A program made the position numbers and the translations under genes. A stretch of DNA of 64,000 nt from an uncultured Clostridia bacterium (lineage in GTDB: Bacteria; Bacillota; Clostridia; Oscillospirales; CAG-272). Positions 20,809 through 41,138 of the stretch are shown here, one piece after another; positions within the stretch are counted from its first letter, which is position 1; each line of letters begins with the position of its first letter. The stretch is taken from positions 7,069 through 71,068 of the forward strand of contig CANQWE010000001.1 in assembly GCA_947627475.1 (NCBI GenBank). The letters are read 5' to 3'. The notes under the pieces are model-generated. The model did no database searches. It saw only the letters and a list, made by a program, of their open reading frames with translations, and had not been told where the DNA came from.

Positions 20809-22026
20809 TTATCTGATTCCATATTTTTCAATGATATAGTCCATATCCTTATCTCCTCTGCCGGAGAGATTGATCAGAATCGAACCTTTCTCCATCTGCC
20901 GTGCCAGCTTCATAGCATAGGCAACCGCGTGGGAGCTTTCAATGGCCGGGATGATTCCTTCCATTCTGGAAAGCTCAAAGAATGCATCGATGGTTTCGTC
21001 ATCGGACACAACATCGTACTTTACCCTGCCAAGGTCGTGGAGAAACGCGTGCTCGGGGCCGGAGGAGGGATAGTCCAATCCGCTTGCCACTGAGTAAACC
21101 GGCGCCGGATCTCCATTTTCATCCTTGAGCATAATGCTGTTGAAGCCGTGCATGACCCCTTCAGAGCCATAGGACAGACTTGCGGCATGATCCCCAAGGG
21201 CAGGTCCTCTGCCAAGCGGTTCCACCCCATAGATCTCTACAGGGTCATTTAAAAATCCCGCGAACATTCCCATTGCGTTGGAGCCGCCCCCAACACAGGC
21301 GACAACAGCGTCCGGCAGCTCACCGGTCATCTCAATAAACTGCTCCCGTGCTTCTATTCCTACAACACTCTGGAAGTCCCGCACCATCATGGGGAAGGGA
21401 TGGGGTCCTACTACGGAACCGATGCAGTAAATGGCGTCCTTATACTCTCTGGAGTAAGCCATAAACGCGGCGTCTACAGCTTCCTTCAGGGTTTGCAGCC
21501 CGTCTGTCACCTCAATTACATTGGCGCCGAGAATTTTCATTCTGGCTACATTGGGGGCTTGCTTTTTTATATCTACAGCACCCATATAAATATCACATGC
21601 AAGGCCAAAGTAGGCGGCTGCTGTTGCCAAAGCCACGCCATGCTGTCCGGCCCCTGTTTCAGCAATCACCTTTTTCTTACCCATGTACTTGGCGAGAAGG
21701 GCCTCTCCCATACAGTGGTTCAGTTTATGGGCGCCGGTGTGGTTCAGGTCTTCCCGTTTTACATAAAGCTGCACGTTGCCCAGCTTTCCGGACAGCCGTT
21801 CCAGATAGGAGACAGGAGTCGGCCTGCCCTGAAATTCCTTTCGGATACGGCGCAGTTCACTGACAAATTTGCTGGATTTACAAATGGTAAAGTAGGCCTG
21901 GGTGATCTCGTCCATGGCCTCCTGCAGCTCCTTTGGAATAAAGGAGCCCCCGTATTTTCCGAAGTATCCTTCCCCGTCGGGATAATTTTTCAGATATGTA
22001 TCAAAATCGATATTTCCGTATTGCAT
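20809..22026 (-). CDS. trpB: Stand-alone tryptophan synthase beta-chain-like enzyme (TrpB2 type)
   Basis: [24 protein letters not shown] (PLP lysine), [15 protein letters not shown] before ATG 22026 (MQYGNIDF). No trpA is adjacent. Confidence 0.85.
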
Positions 22027-22069
22027 TTTACGTTCCTCCAAAAATAGTAAAGAATCGTTTGTTTATTAA

Positions 22070-22300
22070 CTGTGCTGCTGTAGGTGGATGGGGGGAAGAA
22101 TACCCAAACAATCCCCCCGACATACCAGCGGTGTGCCACCCCCCTTTACATAAGGGGGACTGCGTCAGGTAAGGTTTCCCCTTGCAGGGGGGATAACGCC
22201 GAAGCATCCAATCTATGCATCCCCTGTTCGTGTTTTGTAAAGTGAAACACCGGGGTTGGTGCCGCGGTAGCGACGAAGGGGTATCTGCACATTTCTTTCT
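22070..22300. repeat. Intergenic repeat block D (hairpin modules shared with block A)
   Basis: ccccctttacataaggggg and ccccttgcagggg hairpins parallel cccccctttaaaaaagggggg and ctccccacaaggggag of block A. It lies inside the trpB 5' UTR. Confidence 0.6.
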
Positions 22301-22430
22301 CCAACCAGCCTTTTTATAATAAAAAAATTTCGTGTGGACGCCGCCATCGTTTAGTCAGTAATGTCATAATAATTTCCTCCTGAAACAGAAAAATTTCATG
22401 GACGCATATGGTTTGTCAAAGAAGTATCAA

Positions 22431-22737
22431 ACAAAAAACGCCCTTGACAAAAAACATTTTGTCAAGGACGAATACGGTATATTGTTTTCCTATACCAAAA
22501 TCCGCGGTGCCACCTTGCATTCACGGGTAGAGCCCGTGCACTCAGCAGGATACCTGCATATCCCCGGCAACTGACGTATGCCCACACGTTGCAGAATACT
22601 TTGGGAAGTTCCCATTTGACTGCACCCTCAGCGGTCCATTTGACAATTTGTTTCTTACCTGATTTTCAGCATCGCAGGCTCTCTGTAAAGGCATCATTGC
22701 CGTTATCTCCGCTTCAACGGTTTAGTGTATTATATTT
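22431..22737 (-). promoter_or_regulatory. T-box riboswitch leader, tryptophan-specific (specifier UGG)
   Basis: Minus-strand RNA has K-turn halves UGAAGCGG / CCGCUGAGG, AGAGAG (fwd 22679-22684) and specifier UGG followed by A (fwd 22636-22638). It also has T-box core AGGUGGCACCGCGG (fwd 22501-22514) and terminator cgtccttgacaaaatgttttttgtcaagggcg plus a U-run (22431-22470). Confidence 0.8.
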
Positions 22738-22743
22738 TTATTT

Positions 22744-22772
22744 ATTATAGCACGGCCGGCGATTTCTGTCAA
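22744..22772 (-). promoter_or_regulatory. Sigma-A type promoter of the Trp T-box leader
   Basis: Minus strand TTGACA (22772-22767), 17 nt, TATAAT (22749-22744). Confidence 0.6.
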
Positions 22773-22803: not shown

Positions 22804-23394
22804 TCAGCATCCGTGATAGATTTTAATAATCTCTTCTGCAACCATACGCCTTGTAACACAGCGGTCCATGGCCTGCTTTTCAATGTATCGATGCGCCTGG
22901 GGCTCATCCATTTTAAGTTCTTGGATCAGCAGCCACTTGGCACGGTTGACAATCCGGATTTCCTCCATTTTTTCTTCAATGGAAAGGGTTTTCTTTTCAG
23001 ACCGTCTCAGCCGTTCCCTGGCGCAGGCCATCCATCCCAGCGCGGTCATGATCGTAGGCTTGGCGGTGGGCTTCGAAAGCGTGAAAACGCCGTGCTCTGC
23101 AACCTTATCAAAAATTTCGTCATGCACCTCGGCCCGCACCAGCAAAAGGACCACAGTTTCCTTTGCAATGCAGGCGTCGATTGCAAACCGGACGCCCATG
23201 TCATCTGGAAGCGGAGCGTTGACGATTACAAAGTCAAAGGCATTTTCGGCAAAGGCTCTTTTGGCGGCGCTTACACTGGTCGCAAACTGAAGGGGGCTGT
23301 ATTTGGACTCAGGGAGCAAAGCAGACATGGCGCTGTTGAAGGCTTCTGATGCAGAAACCACCAGAACGCTGTAACCCTGCTCTTTGAGACTCAT
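22804..23394 (-). CDS. ANTAR-domain RNA-binding antiterminator with a pseudo-receiver N-terminal domain
   Basis: C-terminal IVNRAKWLLIQELKMDEPQAHRYIEKQAMDRCVTRRMVAEEII is an ANTAR pattern. The N-terminal receiver-like fold lacks the acidic pocket (VLVVSASEAF) and has Asn at the phospho-acceptor position (FVIVNAPLPDD). Confidence 0.8.
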   Translation of the reverse strand: MSLKEQGYSVLVVSASEAFNSAMSALLPESKYSPLQFATSVSAAKRAFAENAFDFVIVNAPLPDDMGVRFAIDACIAKETVVLLLVRAEVHDEIFDKVAEHGVFTLSKPTAKPTIMTALGWMACARERLRRSEKKTLSIEEKMEEIRIVNRAKWLLIQELKMDEPQAHRYIEKQAMDRCVTRRMVAEEIIKIYHGC

Positions 23395-23427
23395 ATGGCT
23401 CCCCTCCTTTCCAAATTGCCGATCGCG

Positions 23428-24639
23428 TCACCTGCCGCAGTAAATCTCCAAAATTTGGGCAGGCACATGTACCCTGATAAAGTCGCTGGCAGCCGCGATC
23501 CTGCGCGCGGTATGAACATCCTGCGGAAGCTTTTTATAATGCTCCAGCGTTTTTGCATCCGCTGTGTACAGATTTACATTTGCTGCTGCCGGCAGGTCTA
23601 ACTTGCTTTCGATTCCCCAAAGCCCAGCATAAATCAGCAGAGCAAAGGCAAGGTACGGGTTGGCCGTGGGATCCGGGGAGCGGAGCTCTGCCCGGCGATA
23701 TTCCCCGATTGCAGCGGGGACGCGCACAAGCTGGGACCGGTTTTCGCTGGACCAGGATATATACCCGGGGGCCTTGTTTTGTCCGAACCGCTTGTAGGAA
23801 GCTTCCGTGGGATTGAGAAATGCGGTCATTTCCTCCGCCTTTGCCAAGATCCCAGCGATCATATAGCAGAGATTTTCAGATCCCGGGCAGGGCTTTACAG
23901 ACATATTGATGTGAAACCCGTTGCCGGGCTGATCCGCAAGGGGCTTAGGTGAGAAATCCGCAAAAAGCCCGTTGCGGTGCGCCGCGGTTTTTACGACCGT
24001 TTGAAAGGTCAGCGCATTGTCTGCCGCTGTCAGCGCGTCAGAATAGCGAAAGTCTATTTCATTCTGTCCAAAGCCTTCCTCGTGGTGGGAGCTTTCCGGG
24101 AGGATCCCCATCTGCTCCAGCGTGAGACAGATTTCCCGGCGTATGTTTTCCCCCCGGTCGTCGGGGGCGATATCCATATATCCTGCTGTATCATAGGGCT
24201 CCCGTGTAGGCATGCCTTCTGCATCCAGCTTAAACAGGTAGAATTCCTGCTCGGCGCCAAAGGCAAAGCTGTATCCACGCCTTTGGGCGTCGGCCATGGC
24301 CTTTTTCAAAAGACTGCGCGTGTCACATGCAAAGGGCGTACCGTCCGGATGGGAGATGTCTGCAAACATACGCACCACCTTGCCGTGCTCCGGCCTCCAG
24401 GGAAGCAGCATCAGTGTTTCGGCGCATGGATGGAGCAAAAGATCAGAACAGGTCTCCCCTCCAAAGCCTGTGATGGCGGACGCGTCAAAAGCGATTCCGT
24501 ATTCAAAAGCCCGGGGAAGCTCTCCTGGCATAATGGATATGTTTTTCTGCCTGCCGAACACGTCACAGAAAGCAAGACGGATAAACTTCACATCCTCCTC
24601 CCGGACATACTGCAGTACCTCTTCCTTCGAATACTTCAT
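23428..24639 (-). CDS. glnA: Glutamine synthetase (short type I-like, 403 aa)
   Basis: FGAEQEFYLF, HHEEGFGQNEIDF, NGFHINMSV, SYKRF, ENRSQLVRVP. Confidence 0.85.
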   Translation of the reverse strand: MKYSKEEVLQYVREEDVKFIRLAFCDVFGRQKNISIMPGELPRAFEYGIAFDASAITGFGGETCSDLLLHPCAETLMLLPWRPEHGKVVRMFADISHPDGTPFACDTRSLLKKAMADAQRRGYSFAFGAEQEFYLFKLDAEGMPTREPYDTAGYMDIAPDDRGENIRREICLTLEQMGILPESSHHEEGFGQNEIDFRYSDALTAADNALTFQTVVKTAAHRNGLFADFSPKPLADQPGNGFHINMSVKPCPGSENLCYMIAGILAKAEEMTAFLNPTEASYKRFGQNKAPGYISWSSENRSQLVRVPAAIGEYRRAELRSPDPTANPYLAFALLIYAGLWGIESKLDLPAAANVNLYTADAKTLEHYKKLPQDVHTARRIAAASDFIRVHVPAQILEIYCGR

Positions 24640-24663: not shown

Positions 24664-25479
24664 TTAGTTTGCTACATACATCTGCTTGTAGGGGTTTTTG
24701 CTGTCAGGGGTAACTACGGTGAAGGGCGCGTGCAGAACCGTGGCCATATCATATCCGAAAACACCGCAGTATTCCCGCACATACACTTGCAGTTCTTCCA
24801 TATCCGCGGCTTTGGCAGGGCGGGCTGTGACCTGATCCGGAAACTTCACATCTCCGCAGTGGGCGCGCAGAAATATTTTTCCCCCGTGCATGCCGGTACA
24901 AGGGAAATAGCCTACGATTTTTTTGCCCTGTAACCCAAGACCCAGAACTACGATCACACCGCCAGCCTGGTATTCGCCGAGAAAACTTCCGGCGCTGCCG
25001 CCGATCACCATCACCGGCATTTTTTCCTTGTATGCCTTCATGTGGATGCCGGCGCGGTATCCGGCGTTTCCCTGCACGAATATCCGGCCGCCCCGCATGG
25101 CATATCCGGCCGCGTCTCCTATGCTGCCGTGGATGATGATCGTTCCTTCGTTCATTGTATCCCCCACGGCGTCCTGCCCGTTTCCATTTACTGTAATGTG
25201 TGCTCCATTGAGATATGCCCCCAACGCATTGCCGGGAATACCATCAATCGTAATATTTTTCTCAGCCATGCCCGCCGCGATGAAGCGCTGTCCCCGGCAG
25301 CCTACCACCCTGCAGTCTTCCTCCGCCTTGCGAAGCGTATCATTTAAAGCCCGGAAATCCAGGCTGCCAGCATCGATTACCATACTATTATACCGCACCT
25401 CCCAGGGTATTTCTACAAATTTGAGGAGAAAAACTGCAAAAGCCGTATTTTCTCCTTTCCTATAAACATTTTCCAGCAT
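24664..25479 (-). CDS. Glutamate synthase GXGXG-domain subunit (GltB C-terminal domain homolog)
   Basis: Repeated G-x-G-x-G beta-helix motifs (GNGQDAVGD, HGSIGDAAGY, QGNAGYRAG, GGSAGSFLG). Confidence 0.8.
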   Translation of the reverse strand: MLENVYRKGENTAFAVFLLKFVEIPWEVRYNSMVIDAGSLDFRALNDTLRKAEEDCRVVGCRGQRFIAAGMAEKNITIDGIPGNALGAYLNGAHITVNGNGQDAVGDTMNEGTIIIHGSIGDAAGYAMRGGRIFVQGNAGYRAGIHMKAYKEKMPVMVIGGSAGSFLGEYQAGGVIVVLGLGLQGKKIVGYFPCTGMHGGKIFLRAHCGDVKFPDQVTARPAKAADMEELQVYVREYCGVFGYDMATVLHAPFTVVTPDSKNPYKQMYVAN

Positions 25480-26987
25480 TACTCTCCCGCATGGCAGATA
25501 CCCAGGATCTCCAGTTCCTTATCTGTCATACCAATACCCCGCAGCATCAGCCGATTCCCCCGCAGGGCTTCAATGGAGTTGATTCCCATGCCGCCCATCA
25601 TCTCCTTGATTTCATGCTGCCATGCGTGCATCAGATTGATGAGCCGTTGACTGCCGATGCTGGGATCCAGACGCTTCACCAATTCGGGACGCTGGGTTGC
25701 AATGCCCCAGTTGCACCGGCCGCTTTGACAGGAACGGCATAGATGACAGCCCAGAGCCAAAAGCGCCGCAGTTGCAATATAACAGGCGTCTGCGCCCAGG
25801 GCGACGGCCTTTATCACATCTGCCGCGCTGCGGATCGAACCGCCTGCAATGATAGAGACGTCGTTTCGGATCCCTTCATCCCGGAGGCGCTGATCCACCG
25901 CCGCAAGAGCAAGCTCAATGGGAATGCCCACATTGTCCCGGATCCTGGTGGGCGCCGCCCCTGTACCGCCTCGGAACCCGTCGATGGCGATGATATCTGC
26001 ACCGCTTCTGGCGATCCCGCTGGCAATGGCGGCGATATTATGTACAGCCGCCACCTTCACAATTACCGGCTTATTATATTGGGTGGTCTCCTTCAGAGAG
26101 AACACGAGCTGCCGCAGGTCTTCGATGGAATAAATGTCGTGGTGGGGCGCCGGGGAAATGGCGTCCGACCCTTCGGGGATCATACGGGTACGGGATACGT
26201 CTCCCACAATCTTTGCACCCGGCAAATGTCCGCCGATACCTGGCTTGGCGCCCTGTCCCATTTTGATCTCAATGGCGGCGCCTGCATGTAAATAATCTTC
26301 GTGCACGCCGAACCGGCCGGAGGCAACCTGCACAATGGTGTTTTCCCCGTAGCAATAGAAGTCCTCGTGCAGCCCCCCCTCGCCGGTGTTGTAGAGGATG
26401 CCAAGCTCCGTGGCGGCACGGGCCAAAGCGGCGTGGGCGTTGTAGCTGATGGAGCCGTAGCTCATGGCTGAAAACAGCACGGGCATGGTAAGGGTAAGCT
26501 GGGGAGGAAGCTGACAGTTTAGCCTGCCGGCTTCATCCCGCTGGATCCGGTGGGGCTTTTTCCCCAGGAACACACGGGTTTCCATAGGCTCCCGCAGGGG
26601 ATCGATAGGCGGGTTGGTCACCTGGGATGCGTTGATCAGAATTTTATCCCAGTATACAGGCATGGGCCTTGGATTCCCCATGGAGGAAAGGAGTACGCCC
26701 CCGCTGTCCGCCTGCTTGTAGATTTCCCGGATTGTATCGCTTTGCCAGTTGGCGTTTTCTCGGAGGGTACAATTGCTTTTGACGATCTTCAGGGCCCTGG
26801 TGGGACACAGTGCCACACAGCGCTGGCAGTTTACACATTCCCGCTCGTCGCTGGTCATAACGCCCCTGTCCGGATTCAATGCATGCACCCCGTTGGCGCA
26901 TTGCCCCTCACAGACTCTGCATCCGATACAGCGGTCGGCATTGCGAATTACCTCAAACTCCGGATATACAAATTCTGTACGCATCAA
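25479..26987 (-). CDS. Glutamate synthase FMN-binding subunit with N-terminal 2x[4Fe-4S] ferredoxin domain
   Basis: CIGCRVCEGQC...CVNCQRCVALCP, then GEGG...GQGAKPGIGGHLPG...GGTGAAP motifs of the GltB central domain. 1-nt overlaps with neighbours. Confidence 0.85.
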   Translation of the reverse strand: MMRTEFVYPEFEVIRNADRCIGCRVCEGQCANGVHALNPDRGVMTSDERECVNCQRCVALCPTRALKIVKSNCTLRENANWQSDTIREIYKQADSGGVLLSSMGNPRPMPVYWDKILINASQVTNPPIDPLREPMETRVFLGKKPHRIQRDEAGRLNCQLPPQLTLTMPVLFSAMSYGSISYNAHAALARAATELGILYNTGEGGLHEDFYCYGENTIVQVASGRFGVHEDYLHAGAAIEIKMGQGAKPGIGGHLPGAKIVGDVSRTRMIPEGSDAISPAPHHDIYSIEDLRQLVFSLKETTQYNKPVIVKVAAVHNIAAIASGIARSGADIIAIDGFRGGTGAAPTRIRDNVGIPIELALAAVDQRLRDEGIRNDVSIIAGGSIRSAADVIKAVALGADACYIATAALLALGCHLCRSCQSGRCNWGIATQRPELVKRLDPSIGSQRLINLMHAWQHEIKEMMGGMGINSIEALRGNRLMLRGIGMTDKELEILGICHAGE

Positions 26988-28078
26988 TATGCACCTTCCT
27001 TTACCTTAACGATCACCGGCTCCCCACCAGCAGGCGCCCAAATGTCAGCAGCGTCCGGCTCCATTGCCCGGATCGCTGCTTCCTCGCTGGCGATAAATAC
27101 CCTATCATCCTTTTCCCCCACCACCATGGAACGGAGCTTAAGCCGATCGTTGAGCGCCATCAGTCCGCCGCTGTATCCGAGAACAATAGAAAACGGTCCC
27201 GTAATCAGCAGGCTGGGGAAAAGCGTGCGCAGATAGGTATATGCCTCCTGCTCTCCCGGGTCGGTTTTGTCCTGGATAGTGCTCCAAAAGGGCGCGGCGA
27301 TCACGCTTGCCGCTTCCTCTAAGGTCAGCCCCTGGATCCGCACCAGAAAGTCCAGTATATAGGTTATGACCTCGGTATCGGTCTGCAGGGTACACTTATA
27401 ACCGAACATTTCTATAAAACGGCGGTTGGCGTCGTAGGATGATATCTCCCCGTTATGTACGATGGAGTAATCTAACAGTGTAAAGGGATGGGCGCCGCCC
27501 CACCAGCCCGGCGTGTTGGTGGGATACCGGCCGTGAGCCGTCCAGGAGTAGCCCATATATTCTTCCAGTTTATAAAATACGGCCACATCTTCCGGAAAGC
27601 CTACTGCCTTGAAGGTGCCCATATTTTTCCCGCTGGAGAAAACATGGGCACCCCGCATTTCTGTGTTGATCTTCATAACAGTACGGGCCACAAATTCCTT
27701 TTCGTCCAGCTGCAGGTTGGCAAGGACAGACTGCAGCGGGGTCACAAAATATCTCCATATAATGGGCTCGTCGATAATGGCGGGAATCTTGCGGGTAGGG
27801 ATAATTTCCGATTTAACAATTTCAAAGCGCTCCTTTAAAAACACTTCGCAGTCCTTGCGGGTCGCCCGCTGATCAAAAAACACGTGCAGCGCATAAAAAT
27901 CCTTATACGCAGGGTAAATGCCATATCCTGCAAAACCGCCGCCCAGTCCGTTGGAACGGTCGTGCATGGGCTTCATAGCGCCGGCCACCAGCTCGCCGGA
28001 CATTTTGTTTCCCTCTTTAGAAATCACAGCGGCAATCGCACATCCGGAGGGGATTCGCACCTGGCCTTCTATTTTCAT
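26984..28078 (-). CDS. Glutamate synthase class-II glutamine amidotransferase subunit
   Basis: MKIEGQVRIPSGCAIAAV..., HGRYPTNTPGWWGGAHPF, HNGEISSY. ATG 28078 is preferred because the track start at 28168 would read through the leader hairpin. Confidence 0.8.
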   Translation of the reverse strand: MKIEGQVRIPSGCAIAAVISKEGNKMSGELVAGAMKPMHDRSNGLGGGFAGYGIYPAYKDFYALHVFFDQRATRKDCEVFLKERFEIVKSEIIPTRKIPAIIDEPIIWRYFVTPLQSVLANLQLDEKEFVARTVMKINTEMRGAHVFSSGKNMGTFKAVGFPEDVAVFYKLEEYMGYSWTAHGRYPTNTPGWWGGAHPFTLLDYSIVHNGEISSYDANRRFIEMFGYKCTLQTDTEVITYILDFLVRIQGLTLEEAASVIAAPFWSTIQDKTDPGEQEAYTYLRTLFPSLLITGPFSIVLGYSGGLMALNDRLKLRSMVVGEKDDRVFIASEEAAIRAMEPDAADIWAPAGGEPVIVKVKEGAY

Positions 28079-28111
28079 ATTGGTTTTTCCTTTCAGGGAA
28101 ATCTGAAAAAT

Positions 28112-28162
28112 AAAGGAGTTCATTTTCATGCACAGCAGGTCTGCATGAAAATGAACTCCTTT
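28112..28162 (-). promoter_or_regulatory. 5'-leader hairpin / candidate regulated terminator of the glutamate synthase-glnA-ANTAR operon
   Basis: Perfect 21-bp stem AAAGGAGTTCATTTTCATGCA / TGCATGAAAATGAACTCCTTT with a 9-nt loop. On the minus strand it is followed by AUUUUUC. It starts ~8 nt after the predicted TSS and ends 34 nt before the start codon. Confidence 0.6.
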
Positions 28163-28176
28163 GCTCATTTGCAGGT

Positions 28177-28205
28177 ATTATACATCCTTACCTGCATTTT
28201 GTCAA
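28177..28205 (-). promoter_or_regulatory. Sigma-A type promoter of the glutamate synthase operon
   Basis: Minus strand TTGACA (28205-28200), 17 nt, TATAAT (28182-28177). Confidence 0.6.
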
Positions 28206-28265
28206 GAGAAAAATGCAAAGTTTCATGTGTTTTGCAGGTTCTTGAAAAAATATTGCAAAAAGGGG

Positions 28266-28294: not shown

Positions 28295-28379
28295 GGAAAC
28301 GGAAAGGCAAGGAGGTCTTTATGGGGACACAAGGATGGCCTGCTTGTTTTTAAGCTATCAAGGAAAATATATGTGGGAA

Positions 28380-29787
<1,408 letters not shown>

Positions 29788-29927
29788 GTATATAAAAACC
29801 ACCCCTCCGGCGGCAGCCGCCACCTTTCCTTCCTTGCAAAGGAGAGGCAGAGAAGCTAACAGAGGAAGAGATAGGAAGATTATCCCTCGCTACCGCAGGC
29901 AGCAGAAAAAATAACATATAAACCAAA

Positions 29928-29985
29928 GGCAAAGGCGTCTTTCGTGCTTTTCAGCAGAAAAGACGCCTTTGCCTTTCTTTCATTT
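29928..29985 (+). terminator. Hairpin + T-run between gdhA and glnN (terminator and/or regulated attenuator)
   Basis: ggcaaaggcgtctttc / gaaaagacgcctttgcc stem followed by TTTCTTTCATTTC. The 5' arm carries the shared leader motif. Confidence 0.6.
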
Positions 29986-30002: not shown

Positions 30003-32102
30003 ATGATGAAAACAGTACCAAAGTATTTTGGAAGCCTGGTGTTTGACGACAGGGTGATGAAAGCGACGTTGAGCGCCAAGGTGTATGGGTCCTTGAAAAA
30101 GACAATTGATGAAGGGACGCCGCTGGACATTGGCGTGGCAAATGCGGTGGCTACTGCAATGAAGGACTGGGCAATATCCATGGGGGCCACCCATTATACC
30201 CACTGGTTCCAGCCCCTTACGGGCATTACGGCGGAAAAACACGACAGCTTTATCGCACCCTCCCCGGACGGTGGCGTAATCATGGAATTTTCGGGAAAGG
30301 AACTGATCAAAGGCGAACCGGACGCATCCTCCTTCCCCAGCGGCGGACTGCGCGCGACCTTTGAGGCGAGAGGATATACCGCATGGGATCCCACCTCCTA
30401 TGCGTTTATCAAGGGGCGGACACTGTGCATACCGACTGCGTTCTGCTCTTACGGCGGCGAAGCCCTGGACAAGAAAACGCCGCTGCTGCGTTCTATGAGC
30501 GCCCTCAACAAGCAGGCGCTCCGTATCCTGCGCCTGTTCGGCAACAATACGGCAAAATGCGTCCGTTCCTCTGTGGGACCCGAGCAGGAATACTTTTTGG
30601 TGACGCGGGAAATGTATGATCAGCGTCCGGATTTGCGCTTTACAGGCCGCACGCTATTTGGGGCAAAACCTCCCAAGGGGCAGGAAATGGATGATCACTA
30701 TTTCGGTGTAATCAAGCCCAGAGTCGCGGCTTTTATGGAAGAGCTGAACGAAGAACTGTGGAAGCTGGGCATACTTGCCAAAACAGAACACAACGAAGTG
30801 GCTCCTGCCCAGCACGAGCTGGCGCCGATCTATACTACCACCAATATTGCTACCGATCACAACCAGCTCACAATGGAGATTATGCAGAAAATCGCCGCAA
30901 AGCACGGCCTGGTGTGCCTGCTTCATGAAAAGCCCTTTGCCGGCGTGAACGGCAGCGGCAAGCACAACAACTGGTCCATCGCTACCGATGCGGGCCAGAA
31001 TCTACTGTCCCCTGGGGATACGCCCTATGAAAACGCCCAGTTTCTGCTGTTTCTCTGTGCGGTGATCAAGGCTGTGGACGATTATCAGGACCTGCTTCGC
31101 ATCTCCGTGGCCACTGCCGGCAACGATCACCGGCTGGGCGCCAACGAAGCACCGCCTGCCGTGGTCTCCATATTTTTGGGTGATGAGCTGAACGCGGTGC
31201 TCCAGGCAATCGAAACCGATACACCATACGCGGGCGCCGAAAAAACACAGATGAAGCTTGGTGTGGATGTTCTGCCCAAGTTTAACCGGGACGCCACCGA
31301 TCGTAATAGAACGTCCCCGTTCGCCTTCACCGGCAACAAGTTTGAGTTCCGTATGCTGGGGTCCTCCAACAGTATCGCCTGTGCAAATATTATGCTGAAC
31401 AGCGCTGTGGCGGAGAGTCTGAAAATTTATGCGGACCGGCTGGAAGGGGCGGAGGATTTCGCCGCGGCGCTCCATGGGATGATCCAGAAAACCATCCGGG
31501 ACCATAAGCATATTATTTTCAACGGCAACGGCTACGACGACAGCTGGATCAAAGAAGCCACAGAAAGCCGGGGACTGCTCAATTACCGTACTACGCCGGA
31601 CTGCATGCCCCATCTGCTGGACAAGAAAAACGTGGATATGCTGACCAGCCACGGCGTATATTCCCAGGCGGAGCTAAGGTCCAGATGCGACATTATGCTG
31701 GAAAATTATTGTAAAACTGTCATTATCGAAGCCAGTACCATGGTCACTATGGCAAAAACGCAGATCGCGCCTGCAGTGGAGGGCTATACAGCAGAGGTTG
31801 CAAAGGGCGCGGCGGCAAAGAAAGCGCTGGATACAAGCCTTGCCTGCAGCTACGAGCTTGGCGTCGTAAAGAAATTGTCCGCTCTTACCGACAGAATCGC
31901 AGGCAAGGTAGAGGAACTGGAGGACACTTTGCTGTATTTGCAGAAAGCGGAGGATGTCATGGCACAGTCCGCGATGATCCGAGATAGCGTACTGGTCAAA
32001 ATGGGCGAGCTGCGGGTCGCCTGTGATGAGGCGGAAACCCTCACCGCAAAGAACTGGTGGCCTTATCCTTCCTATGCGGATCTGCTTTTCAGCGTGCAGT
32101 GA
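30003..32102 (+). CDS. glnN: Type III glutamine synthetase
   Basis: 699 aa. The N-terminus [20 protein letters not shown] and the GS core ([33 protein letters not shown]) match the ~700-aa GlnN class. Confidence 0.8.
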
Positions 32103-32151
32103 GAAAGAAGGGCCGTATCAGGAAAAATTTTAAAAACATTGCACTGCACAG

Positions 32152-32180
32152 TTGACAAATTACGTAAAAAAGCGTATAGT
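32152..32180 (+). promoter_or_regulatory. Sigma-A type promoter of the purA-led operon
   Basis: TTGACA (32152-32157), 17 nt, TATAGT (32175-32180). Confidence 0.6.
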
Positions 32181-32264
32181 AATAAAGCAAGGCAAAGGCG
32201 TCTTTGCAGGACTCTCTGGCAGTCTTGATTTTCCCGTTTGCAGAAAAGCATAGCAGATAAAAAA

Positions 32265-32313
32265 GGCAATGGTGTCTTTAATGTATACGCATTAAAGAAT
32301 CATTGCCTTTTTT
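32265..32313 (+). promoter_or_regulatory. Leader terminator-like hairpin (attenuator) upstream of purA
   Basis: aaggcaatggtgtctttaatg / cattaaagaatcattgcctt followed by TTTT. It lies ~80 nt after the predicted TSS and ~85 nt before the purA ATG. Confidence 0.55.
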
Positions 32314-32396
32314 GCCGGATCGAAGCAGCTTGGTCCGGCGGGAGAGGCGGACGCCGATATACGTATTATGCAACTTATGAGGCGGAGGAGATCAGA

Positions 32397-33686
32397 ATGG
32401 CAAACTGTGTGGTAGCAGGCATTAACTGGGGGGACGAAGGAAAGGGCAGAATGGTGGATCTGCTGTCGGAGGACTATGATGTGGCGGTCCGGTTTCAGGG
32501 CGGCGGGAACGCCGGCCATACTGTCATCAACAGATATGGCACTTTTGCGCTGCATCTGCTTCCTTCCGGTATATTTCGTCCCGGTGTGGTGAATATTTTG
32601 GGCAACGGCGTCGCTGTGGATCCTGAAAATCTTTGGAGCGAAATGCAGGGCGTAATGAAGCAGGGCGTATCCCTCTCCCCGGAAAACCTGAAAATCAGCG
32701 ACCGGGCATCTCTTTTGTTGCCATGGCACCGCCAGCTGGATGTGTTGGAGGAGCAGCGGCTTGCAGATAAAAAATACGGCTCTACCAAACAGGGGATCGC
32801 GCCGTTTTATTCAGACAAATATCAGAAGAAAACCATTCTTGCAGGGGAGTTGTTTTACCCCGATACCTTAAAGGTCCACCTGGCAGATCTTTTGGAGTGG
32901 AAAAATCTTATTCTTACCCAGGTGTACGGCGCCCAGCCGTATACGATGGAAATGCTGGAAGCGTGGATAGAGGAGTCCTGTGAGAAAATCAAGCCCTTTA
33001 TCTGTGATACCGGAGCATTTTTGCGGCACGCCCAGGCTGAAGGGAAAAACATCCTTTTTGAAGCCCAGCTTGGTTCTCTGCGGGATTTGGATTACGGGAT
33101 TTATCCATACACCACCTCTTCCAACACTACAGCGGCATACGCGCCTGTTGGCTCGGGGCTCCCCAGTGCAAAAATAACAGACGTTATCGGCGTGGTAAAG
33201 GCCTATTCTACCTGCGTGGGGGAAGGGCCCTTTGTCTGCGAGATGTTTGGAAATGCGGCCGATACCCTGCGGGAGGCCGGAGGGGAATACGGAGCAAAGA
33301 CCGGCAGGCCCCGCAGAGTCGGACCTTTGGATATTGTAGCGACACGGTATGGGGTGGAGGTGCAGGCGGCAACAGAAATTGCCCTGACCAAGCTGGATGT
33401 ACTCAGCTGCATGGAGAAAATTCCTGTATGTACCCACTATCTGCTATGCGGCGAAAAGACCGACCGATTCCCGTTTCCTGCAGCGCTGAAGGATGCCCAG
33501 CCGGTGATCGAATACCGGGACGGCTGGAAGTGCGACATCTCCGGGGTGCGCCGCTTTGAGGATCTTCCAAGAGAGGCGCAGGCATACGTAGCCTATATAG
33601 AAGAACAGATCGGCTGTCCGATCACGTATATTTCCGTAGGTCCGGAGCGGGACAGTATTATTATCCGGAAATCGTACAGTCTATAA
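32397..33686 (+). CDS. purA: Adenylosuccinate synthase
   Basis: [21 protein letters not shown]...[22 protein letters not shown]. The track ORF start at 32238 is upstream of the leader terminator and is rejected. Confidence 0.9.
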
Positions 33687-33711
33687 AAAAGCGCTCCGGC
33701 GTTGGAAATCA

Positions 33712-35268
33712 ATGAAAAGGTCGGTGAACACAGTGGAGGATAAAATACTTGTTTTGGATTTTGGCGGCCAATATAACCAGCTGATTGCCCGCAGAGTTCG
33801 GGAGCAGCATGTTTATGCCGAAATTCAATCCTACAACAGAATTACGGCGCAGGAAATCAAGGCTGCCGGATACAAGGGCGTTATTTTTACCGGGGGCCCA
33901 AACAGCGTCTACGATGCGGCGTCGCCCCACTATGACCCGGAGATCCTGCAAATCGGTGTGCCGATCCTGGGCATCTGCTACGGGGACCAGCTTCTGGCGT
34001 ACATGGCCGGCGGCAGGGTGGACAGAGCGGAAAACTTTAGCGAATACGGCAAAACTACGGTGTTTTTCGATGACGACATCCTCTTCCGAGATGTTCCCCA
34101 AAAGGGTGTTTGCTGGATGAGCCATACGGATTTTATCAGTCAGCCACCGGCGGGATTTGCAGTGATCGCCCATACGGACCAATGCCCCTGTGCAGCCATG
34201 TGTGATCCGGACAGAAAGCTGTACGGCGTACAGTTTCATCCGGAGGTTACCCATACCGAGTACGGAGAGCAGATGCTTGCAAACTTTCTTTTTCCTATCT
34301 GCGGCTGTCGGGCAGACTGGAAAATGGAAGATTTTGTGGAGCGTTCCATTGAAAAATACCGCGGGGAGCTGGCGGGGAAAAAGGTGCTGCTTGCCTTGTC
34401 TGGTGGCGTGGATTCCTCCGTTGCCGCCGTACTGCTCCATAAGGCGATCGGGCGGAATCTGACCTGCGTGTTTGTGGACCACGGGCTTTTGCGCAAGGGG
34501 GAAGGGGATTTTGTGGAAAAGACCTTTCGAGACACATTCGGTATGAACCTTATCCGGGTGCAGGCGGAAAAAAGATTTTTAAAGAGACTGACCGGGGTAC
34601 GCGATCCGGAGGAAAAACGCAAAATCATCGGCGAGGAATTCATCCGCGTCTTTGAAGATGAGGCAAAGCGCCTGGGAAAAATTCACGTGCTCGCCCAGGG
34701 AACCATCTACCCGGATGTGGTGGAAAGCGGCAAGGGAGATTCGGCGGTGATCAAAAGCCACCACAATGTAGGGGGGCTTCCCGATGTGATTTCCTTTGAG
34801 AAAATTGTAGAGCCTCTGCGGACGCTTTTTAAAGATGAAGTGCGGCAGGCAGGCGCCCAGCTTGGGATCCCACATGCGCTAGTGTGGCGGCAGCCCTTTC
34901 CCGGACCCGGTCTTGCAGTCCGGGTAATCGGTGCGGTCACAGAGGAAAAACTGGCGCTTCTGCGGGATGCGGACGCCATCTTCCGTGAGGAGATCGGGGC
35001 CGCCGGACTGGAGGAGGAGACCAATCAGTATTTTGCCGTCCTGACCGACCTGCGCAGCGTGGGTGTGATGGGAGACGCCAGGACTTATGGTTATACGGTG
35101 GCCCTGCGGGCGGTTACCACAGACGATTTTATGACAGCCGAATGGACCCGGCTTCCATATGATGTTTTGGAACGTTCCAGTAATCGGATTACAAACGAAG
35201 TGACGGGTATATCAAGAGTGGTGTTTGATATTACTTCCAAACCGCCGGCCACAGTAGAGTGGGAATAA
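33712..35268 (+). CDS. guaA: GMP synthase (glutamine-hydrolysing)
   Basis: [39 protein letters not shown]-terminal ATVEWE. Confidence 0.9.
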
Positions 35269-35360
35269 GACAGATATAAATCATGTGGTCCGCACGCTTT
35301 TACAGATCCAGACGATCGGCAAAAGAGCGGGCTGGATTTGCAAACACAGAGAGGTACAGC

Positions 35361-36791
35361 ATGGCAGATTTTTGTGCTAAAATCCATGAGGAGTGCGGCG
35401 TATTTGGGGTGATCGCCCCACAGCCTGCCCCCGTTGCAGATATTGCTTACTATGGGTTGTATGCGCTGCAGCACAGAGGGCAGGAAAGCTGTGGCATCGT
35501 GGTCAATGACGACGGCGTATTTGCTTCCCATAAAGATTTGGGCCTGGTCAACGAGGTTTTTACAGAAGACGATTTGTCCCGCCTGCCGGCGGGTACAATG
35601 GCAGTCGCCCATACGCGTTACGGCACTACCGGCGGGACCAACCGGAACAATTGCCAGCCCATCGAGGTCAATCATCAAAAGGGGAGAATGGCGCTGGCCC
35701 ACAACGGAAATCTTTCCAACGCGGCACAGCTTCGGGATGAATTGGAACTGTCAGGTGCCATTTTCCACACCACCAGCGATACGGAGACCATCGCGTATAT
35801 CATTACAAAGCAGCGGCTGCAGGCCCCTTCCATCGAAGAGGCCCTGAGCAGGGCCATGCACACGCTGGACGGGGCCTACTCCCTGGTGCTGATGTCACCC
35901 CAAAAGCTAATCTGTGCAAGAGATCCATATGGATTTCGTCCGCTCTGCTACGGCAAGACGCCCGACGGCATGTATGTGATCGCCTCTGAGGGCTGTGCGG
36001 TCCGGGCAGTGGGCGGAGAGGTCATCCGGGATGTGGAGCCGGGAGAGATCCTGGTATTCAGTAAAAACGGGATCCAGTCCAGAAGGGAGCACTGCGGGAA
36101 AAAAGAGAAAAAGCTGTGTATCTTTGAGTACATTTATTTTGCTCGCCCGGACTCTGTTATCGACGGCGTATCGGTTCACGATGCGCGCCGCCTTGCCGGA
36201 AGAATATTGGCAGCGGCGCACCCGGCAACGGCGGATGTGGTCATAGGCGTTCCGGACTCCGGACTGGATGCGGCGCTTGGCTTCAGTGAGGCCTCCGGAA
36301 TCCCATACGGCATCGGCCTATTGAAAAACAAGTACATCGGCAGAACCTTTATTGCCCCGGGAGATCGGCTGGACAAGGTCAAAATCAAGCTTGCGGCGAT
36401 CGAGAGCGCTGTTCGGGGAAAGCGGGTGGTACTGATTGACGACTCGATTGTCCGCGGTACCACAAGCGGACGGATTGTAGGACTTTTGCGTCAGGCAGGG
36501 GCGCGGGAAATACATATGCGTATTTCTTCGCCGCCGTTCCTGTATCCCTGCTATTATGGTACCGACATCGATTCCCGGGAGCATCTGATCGCCTGCAAAT
36601 ACACCACCGCCCAGATAGCTCAGATCATCGGCGCCGATTCTCTCGGCTATTTTCCGGCAGAGCGTCTGCACCGCCTTGCCGGCAACGGCGGATTCTGCAG
36701 CGCCTGCTTTAATGGCGATTATCCCACAAAGATTCCCGCAAATACCCGAAGAGACCGGTTTGAACGGCACCTGTCGGATATGAAAAAATGA
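35361..36791 (+). CDS. purF: Amidophosphoribosyltransferase
   Basis: MADFCAKIHEECGVFGV (propeptide plus catalytic Cys), VAHTRYGTTG, VLIDDSIVRGTT. Confidence 0.9.
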   Translation: MADFCAKIHEECGVFGVIAPQPAPVADIAYYGLYALQHRGQESCGIVVNDDGVFASHKDLGLVNEVFTEDDLSRLPAGTMAVAHTRYGTTGGTNRNNCQPIEVNHQKGRMALAHNGNLSNAAQLRDELELSGAIFHTTSDTETIAYIITKQRLQAPSIEEALSRAMHTLDGAYSLVLMSPQKLICARDPYGFRPLCYGKTPDGMYVIASEGCAVRAVGGEVIRDVEPGEILVFSKNGIQSRREHCGKKEKKLCIFEYIYFARPDSVIDGVSVHDARRLAGRILAAAHPATADVVIGVPDSGLDAALGFSEASGIPYGIGLLKNKYIGRTFIAPGDRLDKVKIKLAAIESAVRGKRVVLIDDSIVRGTTSGRIVGLLRQAGAREIHMRISSPPFLYPCYYGTDIDSREHLIACKYTTAQIAQIIGADSLGYFPAERLHRLAGNGGFCSACFNGDYPTKIPANTRRDRFERHLSDMKK

Positions 36792-36801
36792 GGTGAGCTG
36801 T

Positions 36802-37884
36802 ATGGTTTTTAACAGAAAAATCCTATTGGAGGACGGTCAGGAATACTTTGGGTATTCCTTTGGAAGTCTGGAGGACCGGGTGTGTGAAATCGTATTCAAC
36901 ACCTCCATGGTGGGCTATCAGGAAATCGTCTCCGACCCCTCCTATACCTACCAGGCAGTTGTGATGACCTATCCGCTGATCGGGAACTACGGCATGGCCG
37001 ATGCGGACTATGAGGCAAAAACTCCCACCATCGGGGCCCTGATCGTGCGGGAATATAATGACGAACCTTCCAACTTTCGGAGTATTGAGACCCTGTCCCA
37101 GGTTATGGAGACCTATCATATTCCCGGGGTGTGGGGGATCGATACCCGAAAGCTCACCCGTTCCATCCGGGACCGAGGCAGCCGCAAGGTGCTGATCACA
37201 GACGCTTCTACCTCCACCGAAAAGGGACTGGCAATTCTTCGGAAGCGGGAGATCCCCAGGGATGCGGTTTCCCGGGTGAGCTGCGATACCATGTGGATCT
37301 CCCGTGCAGAACCGGAAACGTACCATGTGGTGGCCATCGACTGCGGTATAAAACAGAATATTCTCCGGTCCCTGCAAAAGCGTGGCTGCAGGGTTACGGT
37401 GGTTCCCTGGAACACCCCTGCCAGCACTATAGAAAACTTGAATCCCGATGGGATCTTCCTATCCAACGGTCCCGGAGACCCTACGGATGTACCGCAGACC
37501 GTCGCTTCGGTAAAAGCGCTGCTGGGCAGATACCCTATATTCGGGATTTGCCTGGGGCACCAGATCATCTCCCTGGCATATGGAGCCAAAACCTATAAGC
37601 TGAAGTTCGGTCACAGGGGAGGCAATCATCCGGTGCGAAACTTGGAAACCGATAAGATTGAAATCACCTCCCAAAACCACTCCTATGCGGTGGATGCCGA
37701 CAGTCTTGCAACCACCCCGCTGACCGTCACCCATATCAATCTGCTGGATCAGACTGTGGAAGGGGTGAAGTGCGGAAAAGATCGGGTGTTCAGCGTGCAG
37801 TATCATCCGGAAAGCGCGCCTGGTCCCCAGGACAGCGCCTATCTGTTTGACCACTTCGTGGAAATGATGGACCGCTGCCGCTAA
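36802..37884 (+). CDS. carA: Carbamoyl-phosphate synthase small (glutaminase) subunit
   Basis: GYQEIVSDPSY, GICLGHQ, QYHPESAPGP. Confidence 0.9.
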   Translation: MVFNRKILLEDGQEYFGYSFGSLEDRVCEIVFNTSMVGYQEIVSDPSYTYQAVVMTYPLIGNYGMADADYEAKTPTIGALIVREYNDEPSNFRSIETLSQVMETYHIPGVWGIDTRKLTRSIRDRGSRKVLITDASTSTEKGLAILRKREIPRDAVSRVSCDTMWISRAEPETYHVVAIDCGIKQNILRSLQKRGCRVTVVPWNTPASTIENLNPDGIFLSNGPGDPTDVPQTVASVKALLGRYPIFGICLGHQIISLAYGAKTYKLKFGHRGGNHPVRNLETDKIEITSQNHSYAVDADSLATTPLTVTHINLLDQTVEGVKCGKDRVFSVQYHPESAPGPQDSAYLFDHFVEMMDRCR

Positions 37885-37939
37885 ACGGCTTTATGACTTG
37901 GAATCTTATGGAAATGTGAGAAGGAGAAAGAAAAGAGCC

Positions 37940-40900
37940 ATGCCAAAGAGAACAGATATACAGAAGATTCTTGTCATCGGCAGCGGTCCTATTGTGATTG
38001 GCCAGGCGGCGGAATTCGACTATGCAGGAACCCAGGCATGTCTGGCCCTGAAGGAAGAAGGGTATGAAGTGGTTCTCTGCAACTCCAATCCTGCCACGAT
38101 TATGACCGATACATCCATCGCCGACAAGGTGTATATGGAGCCTCTGACGTTGGAATATATTGCCAAGATCATCCGCTTTGAGAGACCGGATGCGATTTTA
38201 CCTGGGATCGGCGGGCAAACCGGACTGAATCTTGCCATGAGTTTGGAAAGAAAGGGGATTCTTGCCGAGTGCCGCGTAGAGCTGCTGGGGACGCAAAGCA
38301 GCAGCATCGTTCAGGCGGAGGACCGAGAACAATTCAAAGCCCTTTGCCAGGCCCTTGGAGAGCCTGTTTTGCCTTCTGATATTGCCAACTCTATAGAAGA
38401 AGGGATAGAGGCCGCCAAAAAAATCGGATATCCTGTGGTTCTGCGTCCTGCGTTTACTCTGGGCGGGACGGGCGGCGGATTCGCCGATACCCAGGAAGAG
38501 CTTTTGCCCCTGATGAAAAATGCGCTTGCTCTTTCTCCGGTGGGTCAGGTGCTCATTGAAAAAAGCATCAAGGGATATAAGGAAATCGAATACGAAGTGA
38601 TGCGGGACAGCAAGGATACGGCCATCACGATCTGCAATATGGAAAATTTGGATCCTGTTGGCATCCATACCGGCGACTCCATTGTGATTTGCCCGTCCCA
38701 GACGCTGACTAATAAGGAATATCATATGCTCAGGGACAGTGCGTTGAAAATCATCCGCGCATTGAAAATCGAAGGGGGCTGCAACGTGCAGTTTGCTCTG
38801 GACCCCAATTCTATGCAGTATTATCTCATTGAGGTGAACCCCAGAGTATCCCGCTCTTCCGCGCTGGCTTCCAAGGCAAGCGGATATCCCATTGCCCGGG
38901 TATCTGCAAAAATCGGGGTTGGAATGACCCTGGATGAAATCCGGATCGCCAATACGCCGGCGTCCTTTGAGCCGACGCTGGACTATGTGGTCACCAAAAT
39001 GCCTCGCTTTCCCTTTGACAAGTTTACAGAGGCGGACAACACGCTCTCCACGCAGATGAAGGCGACAGGGGAGGTTATGAGCGTCGGCAGAACGGCGGAG
39101 GAAAGCTTGCTCAAGGCGATCCGCTCTCTGGAAATCGGACTGTTTCATTTGCATAGCGGCAAGTTTGACGATTGGACGGAGAGGCAGCTGGCGGACTATA
39201 TCCAAATCGGCACGGACGACCGGATTTACGCCATCGCCCAGCTTTTGCGTCTGGGACTGGGAGTAGAGGATATTGCGGCAGTCACCGCCATCGATCGCTT
39301 TTTTCTCCGCAAGCTGAAAAACATTGTGGATATGGAGAAAACGCTGCAGGAGCATCCTGGGGACAGGGGGACTTTGCGCAGGGCGAAACAGATGGGCTTT
39401 TCCGACAAGGAAATTGGCCTGCTTTGGAAGAGGACGGAGAGGGAAGTGTTTCAGCTTAGACATGTGTTGGGCATCGTTCCCGTGTACAAAATGATCGACA
39501 CCTGCGCCTCGGAGTTCGACAGCTATATCCCCTATTTTTACTCCACCTATGAGGAGGAAAACGAGTCCGTTGTATCCGGGAAGAAAAAAATCGTAGTCCT
39601 GGGCTCCGGTCCTATCCGGATCGGGCAGGGGGTGGAATTTGATTATTCCACTGTCCACGCTGTACAGACCATCAAGGAAGCCGGCTATGAGGCGATTATC
39701 ATCAACAACAATCCCGAAACGGTTTCCACTGATTATACCTGCTCTGACAAACTGTACTTTGAGCCTCTGTGCGTAGAGGACGTAATGAATGTGATCGCGC
39801 TGGAGCAGCCGGAAGGGGTCATCGCAACGCTGGGCGGCCAGACGGCCATCAATTTGGCGGGCCCTCTGCGGGAGCGGGGCGTAAAAATCATTGGGACCGA
39901 CTGCGATGCCATCGAGCGTGCAGAAAACCGGGACGCCTTTGAACACCTGCTTTCCTCGCTGAAGATTCCCCAGCCCAAGGGTCGGGCTGTAACCAGTATA
40001 GAGGAGGGCATCCGGGCCGCCGGCGAAATCGGATATCCGGTGCTTGTCCGCCCCAGCTTCGTGCTGGGCGGCAGGGCAATGCAAATCGTCGCTAAGGAGG
40101 AGGCGCTGCGGGACTACCTGAAGACGGCAGTGGAGATCGATACGGATAAGCCGGTGCTGGTGGACAAATATATCCGGGGTAAAGAGGTGGAGGTAGACGC
40201 CATCTGCGACGGAACGCAGGTTTTCGTTCCCGGCATCATGGAGCTTGTGGAGAGGACTGGTGTACATTCCGGAGATTCTATCAGTATATATCCCACCTAC
40301 AGCATTTCCGGAAAGGTCAAAAATACGATACTAAATTATACGCAGCGGCTAGGGCTGGGGATCGGCATCGTAGGTCTGTTTAACATCCAGTTTATTGTGG
40401 ATGAGCATGAGGACGTCTATATCATTGAAGTAAATCCCAGATCCTCCCGAACGGTTCCCTTTCTTTCCAAGGCCACAGGCTGCAGCCTGGCCGATATGGC
40501 CACCCTGGTGATGCTTGGAAAAAGTCTTGCCGAGCAGGGCGTCACGGACATTTACCCAAAAGAAAAGGGCCGGTATTATGTAAAGGTTCCCGCATTCTCC
40601 TTCTCCAAGCTGTACGGGATGGATGCATATCTTTCCCCGGAAATGAAGTCCACCGGGGAGGCGATCGGCTATGACAGAAAGCTGCACCGCGCCATGTATA
40701 AGGCGATGATCGCCTCTGGGATCAGGGTGCAGAACTATGGTACTGTAGTGGTTACCCTGGCCGATGAGGACAAGGAAGAGGCGCTGCCGCTTATCCGCCG
40801 GTTTTACGATATGGGCTTCAATATCGAGGCGACCATAGGAACGGCAATCTTCTTAAAGGAGCATGGCATCCGCACCCGTATCCGGCGCAAGCTCTCCGAG

Positions 40901-41122: not shown

Positions 41123-41138
41123 GAAAAGGAGGCACAGT

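Follow-up and report, generated by a model that had tools for sequence, protein, structure and literature searches.

How does a clostridial antiterminator receive its nitrogen signal if its receiver domain cannot take a phosphoryl group? The question is raised by a 64,000-nt stretch of DNA (the window; positions 7,069 to 71,068 of contig CANQWE010000001.1, forward strand, assembly GCA_947627475.1) from an uncultured Clostridia bacterium of the Oscillospirales group CAG-272, in which the gene for a 196-residue regulator with an ANTAR RNA-binding domain (22804-23394, minus strand) lies 33 nt downstream of a gene for a glutamine synthetase (GS) of 403 residues (23428-24639, minus). NitR has been known for decades. 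Judged by its domains, neighbours and putative RNA targets, the regulator is a NitR-type ANTAR antiterminator of nitrogen-assimilation genes, and it most likely senses nitrogen through the short GS encoded next to it, which is the best-supported reading of the locus and an unproven one. The same partnership had been suggested by an earlier inspection of the letters without database searches (the sequence-only reading), by analogy to the feedback-inhibited GS that controls TnrA and GlnR in Bacillus.

A NitR-type regulator with a putative pseudo-receiver

The ANTAR domain occupies residues 140-190 of the regulator (22825-22977, minus; PF03861, 60.1 bits against a cut-off of 27.3, E = 1.8e-16), is nearly invariant among relatives, and belongs to the only ANTAR gene in the whole 2.13-Mb genome, which is 95.9% complete. 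The N-terminal part, residues 8-119 (23038-23373, minus), was assigned to a receiver-like domain on the basis of pairwise alignments and a Response_reg (PF00072) match of 23.8 bits, below the cut-off of 30.2. Consistent with this assignment, the AlphaFold (AF2) model built from 37 relatives (mean predicted local distance difference test, pLDDT, of 88) displays a five-stranded receiver fold, a continuous helix at residues 112-160 forming a coiled-coil linker, and a three-helix ANTAR domain. The best Foldseek matches of the model were Rv1626, EutV (template-modelling (TM) score 0.73, RNA-bound form) and AmiR (1qo0, TM ~0.6).

Alignment to solved receivers bears out what had been read from the letters about the phosphorylation site, namely a missing acidic pair, Asn at the position of the phospho-accepting Asp and a retained Lys-Pro in beta5. 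The segment VLVVSASE pairs with VLVVDDEE, so that Ser14-Ala15 occupy the acidic-pair positions; FVIVNAPLPDD pairs with the phospho-Asp motif (LVIMDVKMP, VLDVWMPD), which places Asn59 (codon 23218-23220, minus) opposite the acceptor Asp of Rv1626 and NtrC-type receivers; and LSKP pairs with LVKP, with Lys108-Pro109 retained. At the beta4 Thr/Ser position the regulator has Val86, followed by Arg87 (Arg or Lys among relatives). Asp54 was considered as an alternative acceptor and rejected, since an Asp five residues ahead of the acceptor is common in receivers and takes no phosphoryl group; together with Asp64 it belongs to the ordinary receiver motifs (xDxxxxD, PxxDG), and the alignments revealed no other acceptor Asp.

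The substitutions are a property of the family. Across 79 close relatives, which come from many families of gut and rumen Clostridia, there is no variation at Ser14, Asp54, Asn59 (79/79), Pro61, Asp64, Gly67, Gly102 and Pro109. Of the 115 full-length sequences that represent clusters at 50% identity (34-63% identical), 99 have Asn and 7 have Asp at the acceptor position, and the acidic pair is present in none. Most of the 60 homologs drawn from across the class (see below) have Asn at this site as well, down to ~28% identity. Because Asn59, the absent acidic pair and the absent Thr/Ser coincide in one domain, the regulator appears to have kept the receiver fold yet to accept no phosphoryl group.

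Hexaloop hairpins overlap the terminators of nitrogen-gene leaders

The regulator gene is the fifth and last of a minus-strand series that begins with genes for a class-II amidotransferase (GATase_2; 26984-28078), a Fer4 plus Glu_synthase protein with the flavin mononucleotide (FMN) domain (25479-26987) and a GXGXG protein (24664-25479), all assigned by Pfam, and continues with the GS gene. By their domain matches, the first three make up a three-gene split glutamate synthase (GOGAT) of the archaeal type (24664-28078), and the GATase-GltS-GXGXG order is also found at most related loci. A perfect sigma-70-type promoter (TTGACA, 17 nt, TATAAT; 28177-28205, minus; 12/12 matches) precedes the series; the first start codon lies at 28078, and the start at 28168 given by the ORF finder (open reading frames) falls within the leader. 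Since the intergenic gaps are 24-33 nt, or the genes overlap, a transcript shared by all five is plausible. On the 3' side of the ANTAR gene there is a fresh promoter and then a T-box-like leader ahead of trpB; the ANTAR gene therefore closes its transcription unit.

The operon leader contains the putative antiterminator hairpin ATGAGC[AAAGGA]GTTCAT (28151-28168, minus), which starts a few bases past the -10 box and has A1 and G4 in its hexaloop, the two positions recognised by ANTAR domains (PMC3369931). An intrinsic terminator with a U tract (28106-28161, stem 28113-28161, minus; 20 bp, dG -38.5 kcal/mol, z -7.66) takes its 5' arm from the loop and 3' half of this hairpin. The gene map and the strength of this terminator agree with the autoregulatory layout deduced in the sequence-only reading, in which the ANTAR gene is the last of an operon headed by a leader terminator. 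More than 40 related loci show the same overlap of hairpin and terminator, in near-identical sequence, ahead of their operons, and the exact hairpin occurs only once in the genome.

Three further leaders, all on the plus strand, resemble that of the operon. The gdh leader (28303-28427), a probable second target, contains AAAGGC[AAGGAG]GTCTTT (28303-28320) and GAAGGC[AAAGAC]GTCTTC (28377-28394), the latter overlapping a terminator. In the spacer between gdh and glnN (29925-29976), the hairpin AAAGGC[AAAGGC]GTCTTT (29925-29942) falls within the 5' arm of a terminator and is a probable third target, upstream of glnN, which encodes a type III glutamine synthetase (GSIII; 30003-32102). The leader of the purA operon (32190-32312), found by direct reading, combines AAGGC[AAAGGC]GTCTT, AAAGGC[AATGGT]GTCTTT and a terminator, and is a probable fourth target. 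Thus, C[AAAGRC]G hairpins with A1 and G4 overlap the terminator 5' arms in four leaders of the window, and the leader-bearing units are the gltS-glnA operon, gdh, glnN and purA-guaA-purF-carAB-nadE. One conserved hexaloop hairpin is found per terminator in the operon and glnN leaders and two, ~55-70 nt apart, in the gdh and purA leaders.

Genome-wide, a filter for C[hexaloop]G hairpins overlapping a terminator returned 31 matches, and the core GC[AAAGRM]GT was present in only 3 of them, all nitrogen leaders of this cluster (the operon leader, the gdh leader and the gdh-glnN spacer); the purA leader escaped the filter owing to its AATGGT loop. A generic scan for dual hexaloops followed by a T run was dropped, having produced 223 mostly random matches and missed the operon leader. 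At gathering thresholds, Rfam found nothing in the nitrogen leaders, and only T-box and tRNA elsewhere in the window. In other genomes, the hexaloop motif precedes glnN (24 cases) and the operon (24 cases), and also gdh. Three base pairs distinguish the two stem classes, ATGAGC/GTTCAT and AAAGGC/GTCTTT; the changes at these pairs are compensatory, and the loop between the arms is fixed. From these patterns we infer that the regulator would bind RNA at the hexaloop hairpins. As in the NitR type, the ANTAR gene of the window adjoins glnA and the leaders bear terminators.

The genes adjoining the operon form a series on the plus strand (30003-43851; gdh, glnN, purA, guaA, a purF-like gene, carA, carB, dapF, an aminotransferase gene and nadE), such that nitrogen-entry and glutamine-consuming genes make up a 20-kb cluster with an ANTAR-type leader on at least the first three units.

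A glutamine synthetase gene adjoins the regulator gene at most sampled Clostridia loci

The gene directly 5' of the regulator encodes, as had been stated from the letters, an unusually short GS with Gln-synt_N and Gln-synt_C domains. Compared with canonical type I GS (GSI), it has a deleted 12-residue loop and a shortened C terminus and is ~40 residues smaller overall (403 residues vs ~440-470 in full-length GSI-alpha). The match to the GSI-alpha equivalog TIGR00653 reaches 326.4 bits, below the cut-off of 429.15, and the solved relatives include B. subtilis GS (4lnf, E = 4.7e-97), 7tf9, 7tfa and other bacterial GS; the protein is, by sequence comparison, a short GSI-alpha-like form. The metal ligands Glu130, Glu132, Glu187, Glu194, His243 and Glu318 are kept, as is Asp52. 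Alignment to M. mazei GlnA1 places Lys289 (codon 23773-23775, minus) at the flap Glu, which is part of PGYEAP in canonical GSI; Lys is found at this position in 67/69 close relatives, and the longer, more distant ANTAR-linked GS have the canonical flap Glu.

The linkage of the two genes is extensive. In 80 close loci, a GS of ~403 residues is encoded directly 5' of the ANTAR gene wherever upstream sequence exists, and ~13 of the close loci that lack glutamate synthase genes still have GS next to the ANTAR gene. To cover the class, 300 Clostridia genomes were sampled, 105 of which carry a homolog of the regulator, and 60 of these 105 loci, spanning 57% to 23% identity, were taken for analysis. 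The GS gene is directly 5' of the ANTAR gene in 58/60, including loci without GOGAT genes. Wherever a sampled genome has a GS that shares 52% identity or more with that of the window, it also contains a regulator homolog (70/70), and ~56/300 genomes have only canonical GSI (43-50% identical, ~445 residues) and no ANTAR homolog.

Several ANTAR-linked GS have lost catalytic residues. The loss is strong at locus L123, where both Glu pairs and the His are gone, and at L127, where Glu194, His243, Glu318, Arg320 and Asp52 are replaced; it is partial at L114 and L128, which lack the NRS/R motif, and catalytic residues are also partly lost at L100, L107 and L135. In the genomes of L123, L127, L114, L128 and L100, the other GS-family matches are only of GSIII size or a single weaker, partial GS-like match. 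In-frame stops were seen in the ANTAR-linked GS genes of L100 (TGA; G238:C2:66429-67343) and L113 (TAG; G017:C19:3653-4846), which may be further enzyme decay or sequencing errors.

The genome of the window itself contains five GS-family genes, namely a canonical GSI gene (contig C22), the short GS gene, a GS-like partial match (C41) and two GSIII genes, with the loci outside the window on contigs C22, C41 and C2 (L082, L084 and L085). This is an unusually large number for a 2.1-Mb genome in which neither PII nor AmtB was detected. Three contigs labelled Bacteroidaceae, Muribaculaceae and Paludibacteraceae (L024, L026 and L029) also carry GS-ANTAR pairs, 67% identical to those of the window, with one bidirectional hairpin common to the GS and glnN leaders; either Clostridia contigs were mis-binned among the Bacteroidales or the pair was transferred laterally.

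The glutamine synthetase as candidate sensor

The case for the partnership is substantial but indirect, and consists of the adjacency, the co-occurrence, the dead GS copies, the lack of a detected PII gene and a weak complex prediction. PII was not found in the 95.9%-complete genome by a search that was positive in 13/14 control genomes, nor was AmtB, for which the search was positive in 14/14. Dead GS copies kept beside the regulator are hard to explain without a regulatory job. Finally, structure prediction of the 403-residue GS together with the regulator scored 0.45, and the best of 3 controls scored 0.01. In calibration, 58/80 solved complexes and 2/110 mismatched pairs scored high enough to pass, and scores of 0.60 or lower among the passes came from 7 of the 80 solved complexes and from both passing mismatches. 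The runs agreed in at least 90% of contacts, with a partner pLDDT of at least 82. No solved GS-ANTAR complex is known to us, which makes it unlikely that the prediction reproduced a memorised structure. In the literature, the title of Rydzak 2017 (Metab Eng 41:182; cited in PMC5887222 and PMC7063780) reports deregulated nitrogen metabolism on deletion of the type I GS next to an ANTAR gene.

Taken as a whole, the best explanation, a NitR-type antiterminator that acts on hexaloop targets and takes its signal from contact with GS, has in our estimate an even chance of being right. The regulator, once bound to a nascent hexaloop hairpin, would block folding of the terminator and allow read-through and, with the regulator gene at the end of one of its target operons, this would create a positive feedback loop. 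The nitrogen signal would enter through contact between two products of this mRNA, the regulator and the GS-like protein whose gene lies 33 nt upstream. This GS copy would serve as a metabolite receptor, with its conserved active site reading glutamine, the adenylate or energy state, or 2-oxoglutarate. Glutamine-loaded GS would hold the pseudo-receiver, such that the ANTAR dimer could not bind RNA; when nitrogen is scarce, GS would release the regulator, which would then dimerise through its coiled coil and bind the nascent hairpin. Of all the steps in this scheme, the direction in which the switch works is the least certain.

Several observations weigh against the sensor role of GS or the proposed scheme. 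The GS of the window, with all metal ligands in place, may be an ordinary enzyme, and adjacency could mean that the regulator merely rides last behind glnA, the main regulated target. At L122 and L140 the ANTAR gene has no adjacent GS and is preceded by a GXGXG gene instead. The complex prediction is a weak pass without a mapped interface. Canonical ANTAR targets consist of two hexaloop hairpins, and most sites here have one per terminator. Furthermore, the regulon mixes GS and GOGAT with gdh and glutamine-consuming genes, and for this reason the sign of the switch is uncertain, with either nitrogen limitation or glutamine as inducer. In a C. thermocellum mutant that lacks glnA, nitrogen-assimilation genes are reportedly up despite high glutamine.

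The alternatives differ in where they place the signal. The pocket of the pseudo-receiver might itself bind a small metabolite (glutamine, 2-oxoglutarate or a nucleotide second messenger), with GS no more than a co-regulated enzyme. A distinct set of pocket residues is kept family-wide (Ser14, Asn59, Lys/Arg87 and Lys108-Pro109), and a direct small-ligand ANTAR regulator is on record, as NasT binds c-di-GMP (PMC10783516). We nevertheless regard this possibility as unlikely, since it leaves unexplained both the retention of dead GS copies beside the regulator and the fact that the ANTAR-linked GS clade is never without the regulator in the sample.

It is also conceivable, with rather less probability, that the regulator is constitutively active and controlled through its own amount and a promoter-level factor, in which case the Asn receiver would be a dimerisation scaffold. 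The regulator does close its own target operon, and the inverted repeat TGCAAA-N11-TTTGCA just upstream of the -35 box is a possible operator. A pure positive loop without signal input would, however, be bistable and blind to nitrogen, and the dead GS copies and complete co-occurrence would again find no explanation. In addition, the receiver surface is strongly conserved, with 60-75% identity between regulators from different bacterial families, which argues for a conserved contact.

Such a contact could be made with another protein, for example a subunit of glutamate synthase, or a PII-like protein whose gene is missing from the incomplete assembly. The GXGXG gene that takes the place of GS directly 5' of the ANTAR gene at L122 and L140 would fit the former, and at 95.9% completeness a PII gene could have been missed. 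This explanation seems improbable to us, because the GOGAT genes are absent from many GS-ANTAR loci, and the negative PII and AmtB searches are set against controls that were nearly all positive. That an orphan histidine kinase phosphorylates the receiver at some other residue is hardly credible. In its favour, the genome has ten HisKA kinase genes on other contigs, and Asp54 and Asp64 are conserved. Against it, these two are the usual non-acceptor residues, the Mg-binding acidic pair and the Thr/Ser are missing, and there is no HisKA kinase gene on the contig of the window (C1). Neither of the two findings that would have refuted the sequence-only reading, an acceptor Asp elsewhere or an adjacent cognate kinase gene, was made.

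The proposal that the adjacent GS is the partner of the regulator is supported by the indirect evidence above, and is unproven. We consider it possible, at somewhat less than even chances, that the ANTAR-linked GSI clade, including the 403-residue form with the flap Lys and the dead copies, is a dedicated nitrogen receptor and not a bulk assimilatory enzyme, and that with the Asn-receiver ANTAR protein it would form a two-protein switch widespread in Clostridia, taking the place of PII sensing in gut Clostridia such as this one.

Features flanking the operon

A perfect inverted repeat, TGCAAA-N11-TTTGCA (28214-28236, minus), precedes the -35 box of the operon promoter by 8 nt. It may be a candidate site for a DNA-binding regulator of the divergent promoters of the gltS operon and gdh, acting besides antitermination. 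The promoter that follows the ANTAR gene (22772-22744, minus) is likewise perfect; behind it comes the T-box-like leader containing GGTGGCACCGCGG (22439-22772, minus), with a strong terminator at 22470-22439; no call was made for this leader 5' of trpB at the Rfam gathering threshold. Between the leader and trpB (20809-22026) there is a structured spacer of ~400 nt with a micro-ORF (22026-22440). At L004, L006, L015, L027 and other related loci, ~1.5 kb of extra sequence, probably one gene, separates the FMN-domain (Glu_synthase) and GXGXG genes; this insert is absent from the window operon, where the two genes overlap.

Discussion

The closest known systems are NitR of C. saccharobutylicum NCP262 (glnA-nitR-gltAB; Stutz et al. 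2007) and the C. thermocellum cluster Clo1313_2030-2036, which consists of genes for a receiver-ANTAR protein (Clo1313_2030), GS I-alpha (2031) and GOGAT (2032-2036) (PMC4676874, PMC9888227) and behaves as one expression unit (PMC4676874). Compared by gene layout and description, both resemble the window in having an ANTAR gene beside glnA and glutamate synthase genes, and terminator-bearing leaders. NitR induces the GS/GOGAT genes on nitrogen limitation (PMC6316151, citing Stutz 2007), and antitermination of these genes under the same condition is reported or proposed for the two systems (PMC6316151, PMC4676874, PMC9888227). The window differs from them in its short GS with the flap Lys, in a three-gene split GOGAT without the extra oxidoreductase gene of many relatives, and in a regulon that also covers gdh, GSIII and the purine/carbamoyl-phosphate/NAD unit. 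The C. thermocellum papers list an extra 4Fe-4S protein for the cluster.

With regard to the mode of sensing, the regulator shares with AmiR-AmiC of Pseudomonas aeruginosa and NasT-NasS of Paracoccus denitrificans a non-phosphorylated receiver-like domain and a coiled coil (PMC3369931, PMC3795266). AmiR and NasT are sequestered by a co-transcribed, neighbouring ligand-binding protein (PMC3369931, PMC3795266); in AmiC and NasS this protein has the periplasmic-binding-protein fold, whereas the neighbour in the window is a GS. The AmiR-like sensing proposed in the sequence-only reading therefore holds as far as the predicted inability to be phosphorylated is concerned, and is otherwise an analogy: the phmmer match to AmiR covers only residues 98-190, the C-terminal half, Pfam gave no AmiR_N match on the regulator, only Response_reg and ANTAR, and the domain is a degenerate canonical receiver.

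Feedback-inhibited GS of B. subtilis, which acts on TnrA and GlnR, provides the precedent for GSI-alpha as a sensor that passes on its signal by contact (PMC6316151). TnrA and GlnR are MerR-type regulators that act on DNA at promoters and are contacted through a C-terminal tail, whereas the output in the window would be an RNA-binding antiterminator and the proposed contact a receiver fold. EutV-EutW of Enterococcus faecalis and GnfR of Geobacter, in turn, have the same order of receiver, coiled coil and ANTAR domain and hexaloop targets with A1 and G4 that overlap terminators, often of nitrogen genes (PMC3369931, PMC2995071). Unlike EutV and GnfR, which are phosphorylated by a cognate kinase and act on dual hairpins, the regulator of the window has no acceptor Asp and mostly one hairpin per terminator.

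ANTAR antitermination of nitrogen genes, the clostridial glnA-nitR linkage, the AmiR pseudo-receiver and the C. thermocellum gene order are thus already known. In the searchable literature we found no paper that describes an Asn pseudo-receiver as a trait of the entire NitR family, no report of a GSI clade tied to this family by linkage and co-occurrence and decaying to pseudoenzymes in some lineages, and no proposal of GS as the NitR receptor or of the input signal of NitR.

Gut and rumen Clostridia are rich in regulators of this family: about one third of the sampled class has a homolog, and metagenomes contain thousands of relatives, with several thousand GS-ANTAR gene pairs. In this genome the regulator appears to gate GS, GOGAT, glutamate dehydrogenase, GSIII and the purine, carbamoyl-phosphate and NAD amidotransferases. 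The regulator-GS pair also bears on the engineering of amino-acid overflow in industrial clostridia, in which nitrogen metabolism is reportedly deregulated once the linked glnA is deleted. If GS is indeed the receptor, GS-like pseudoenzymes would be ligand-binding partners of an RNA-binding antiterminator, the retention of dead GS beside the regulator would be explained and the mechanism made concrete, and the principle of GS as a sensor would reach from the DNA regulators TnrA and GlnR to RNA antitermination.

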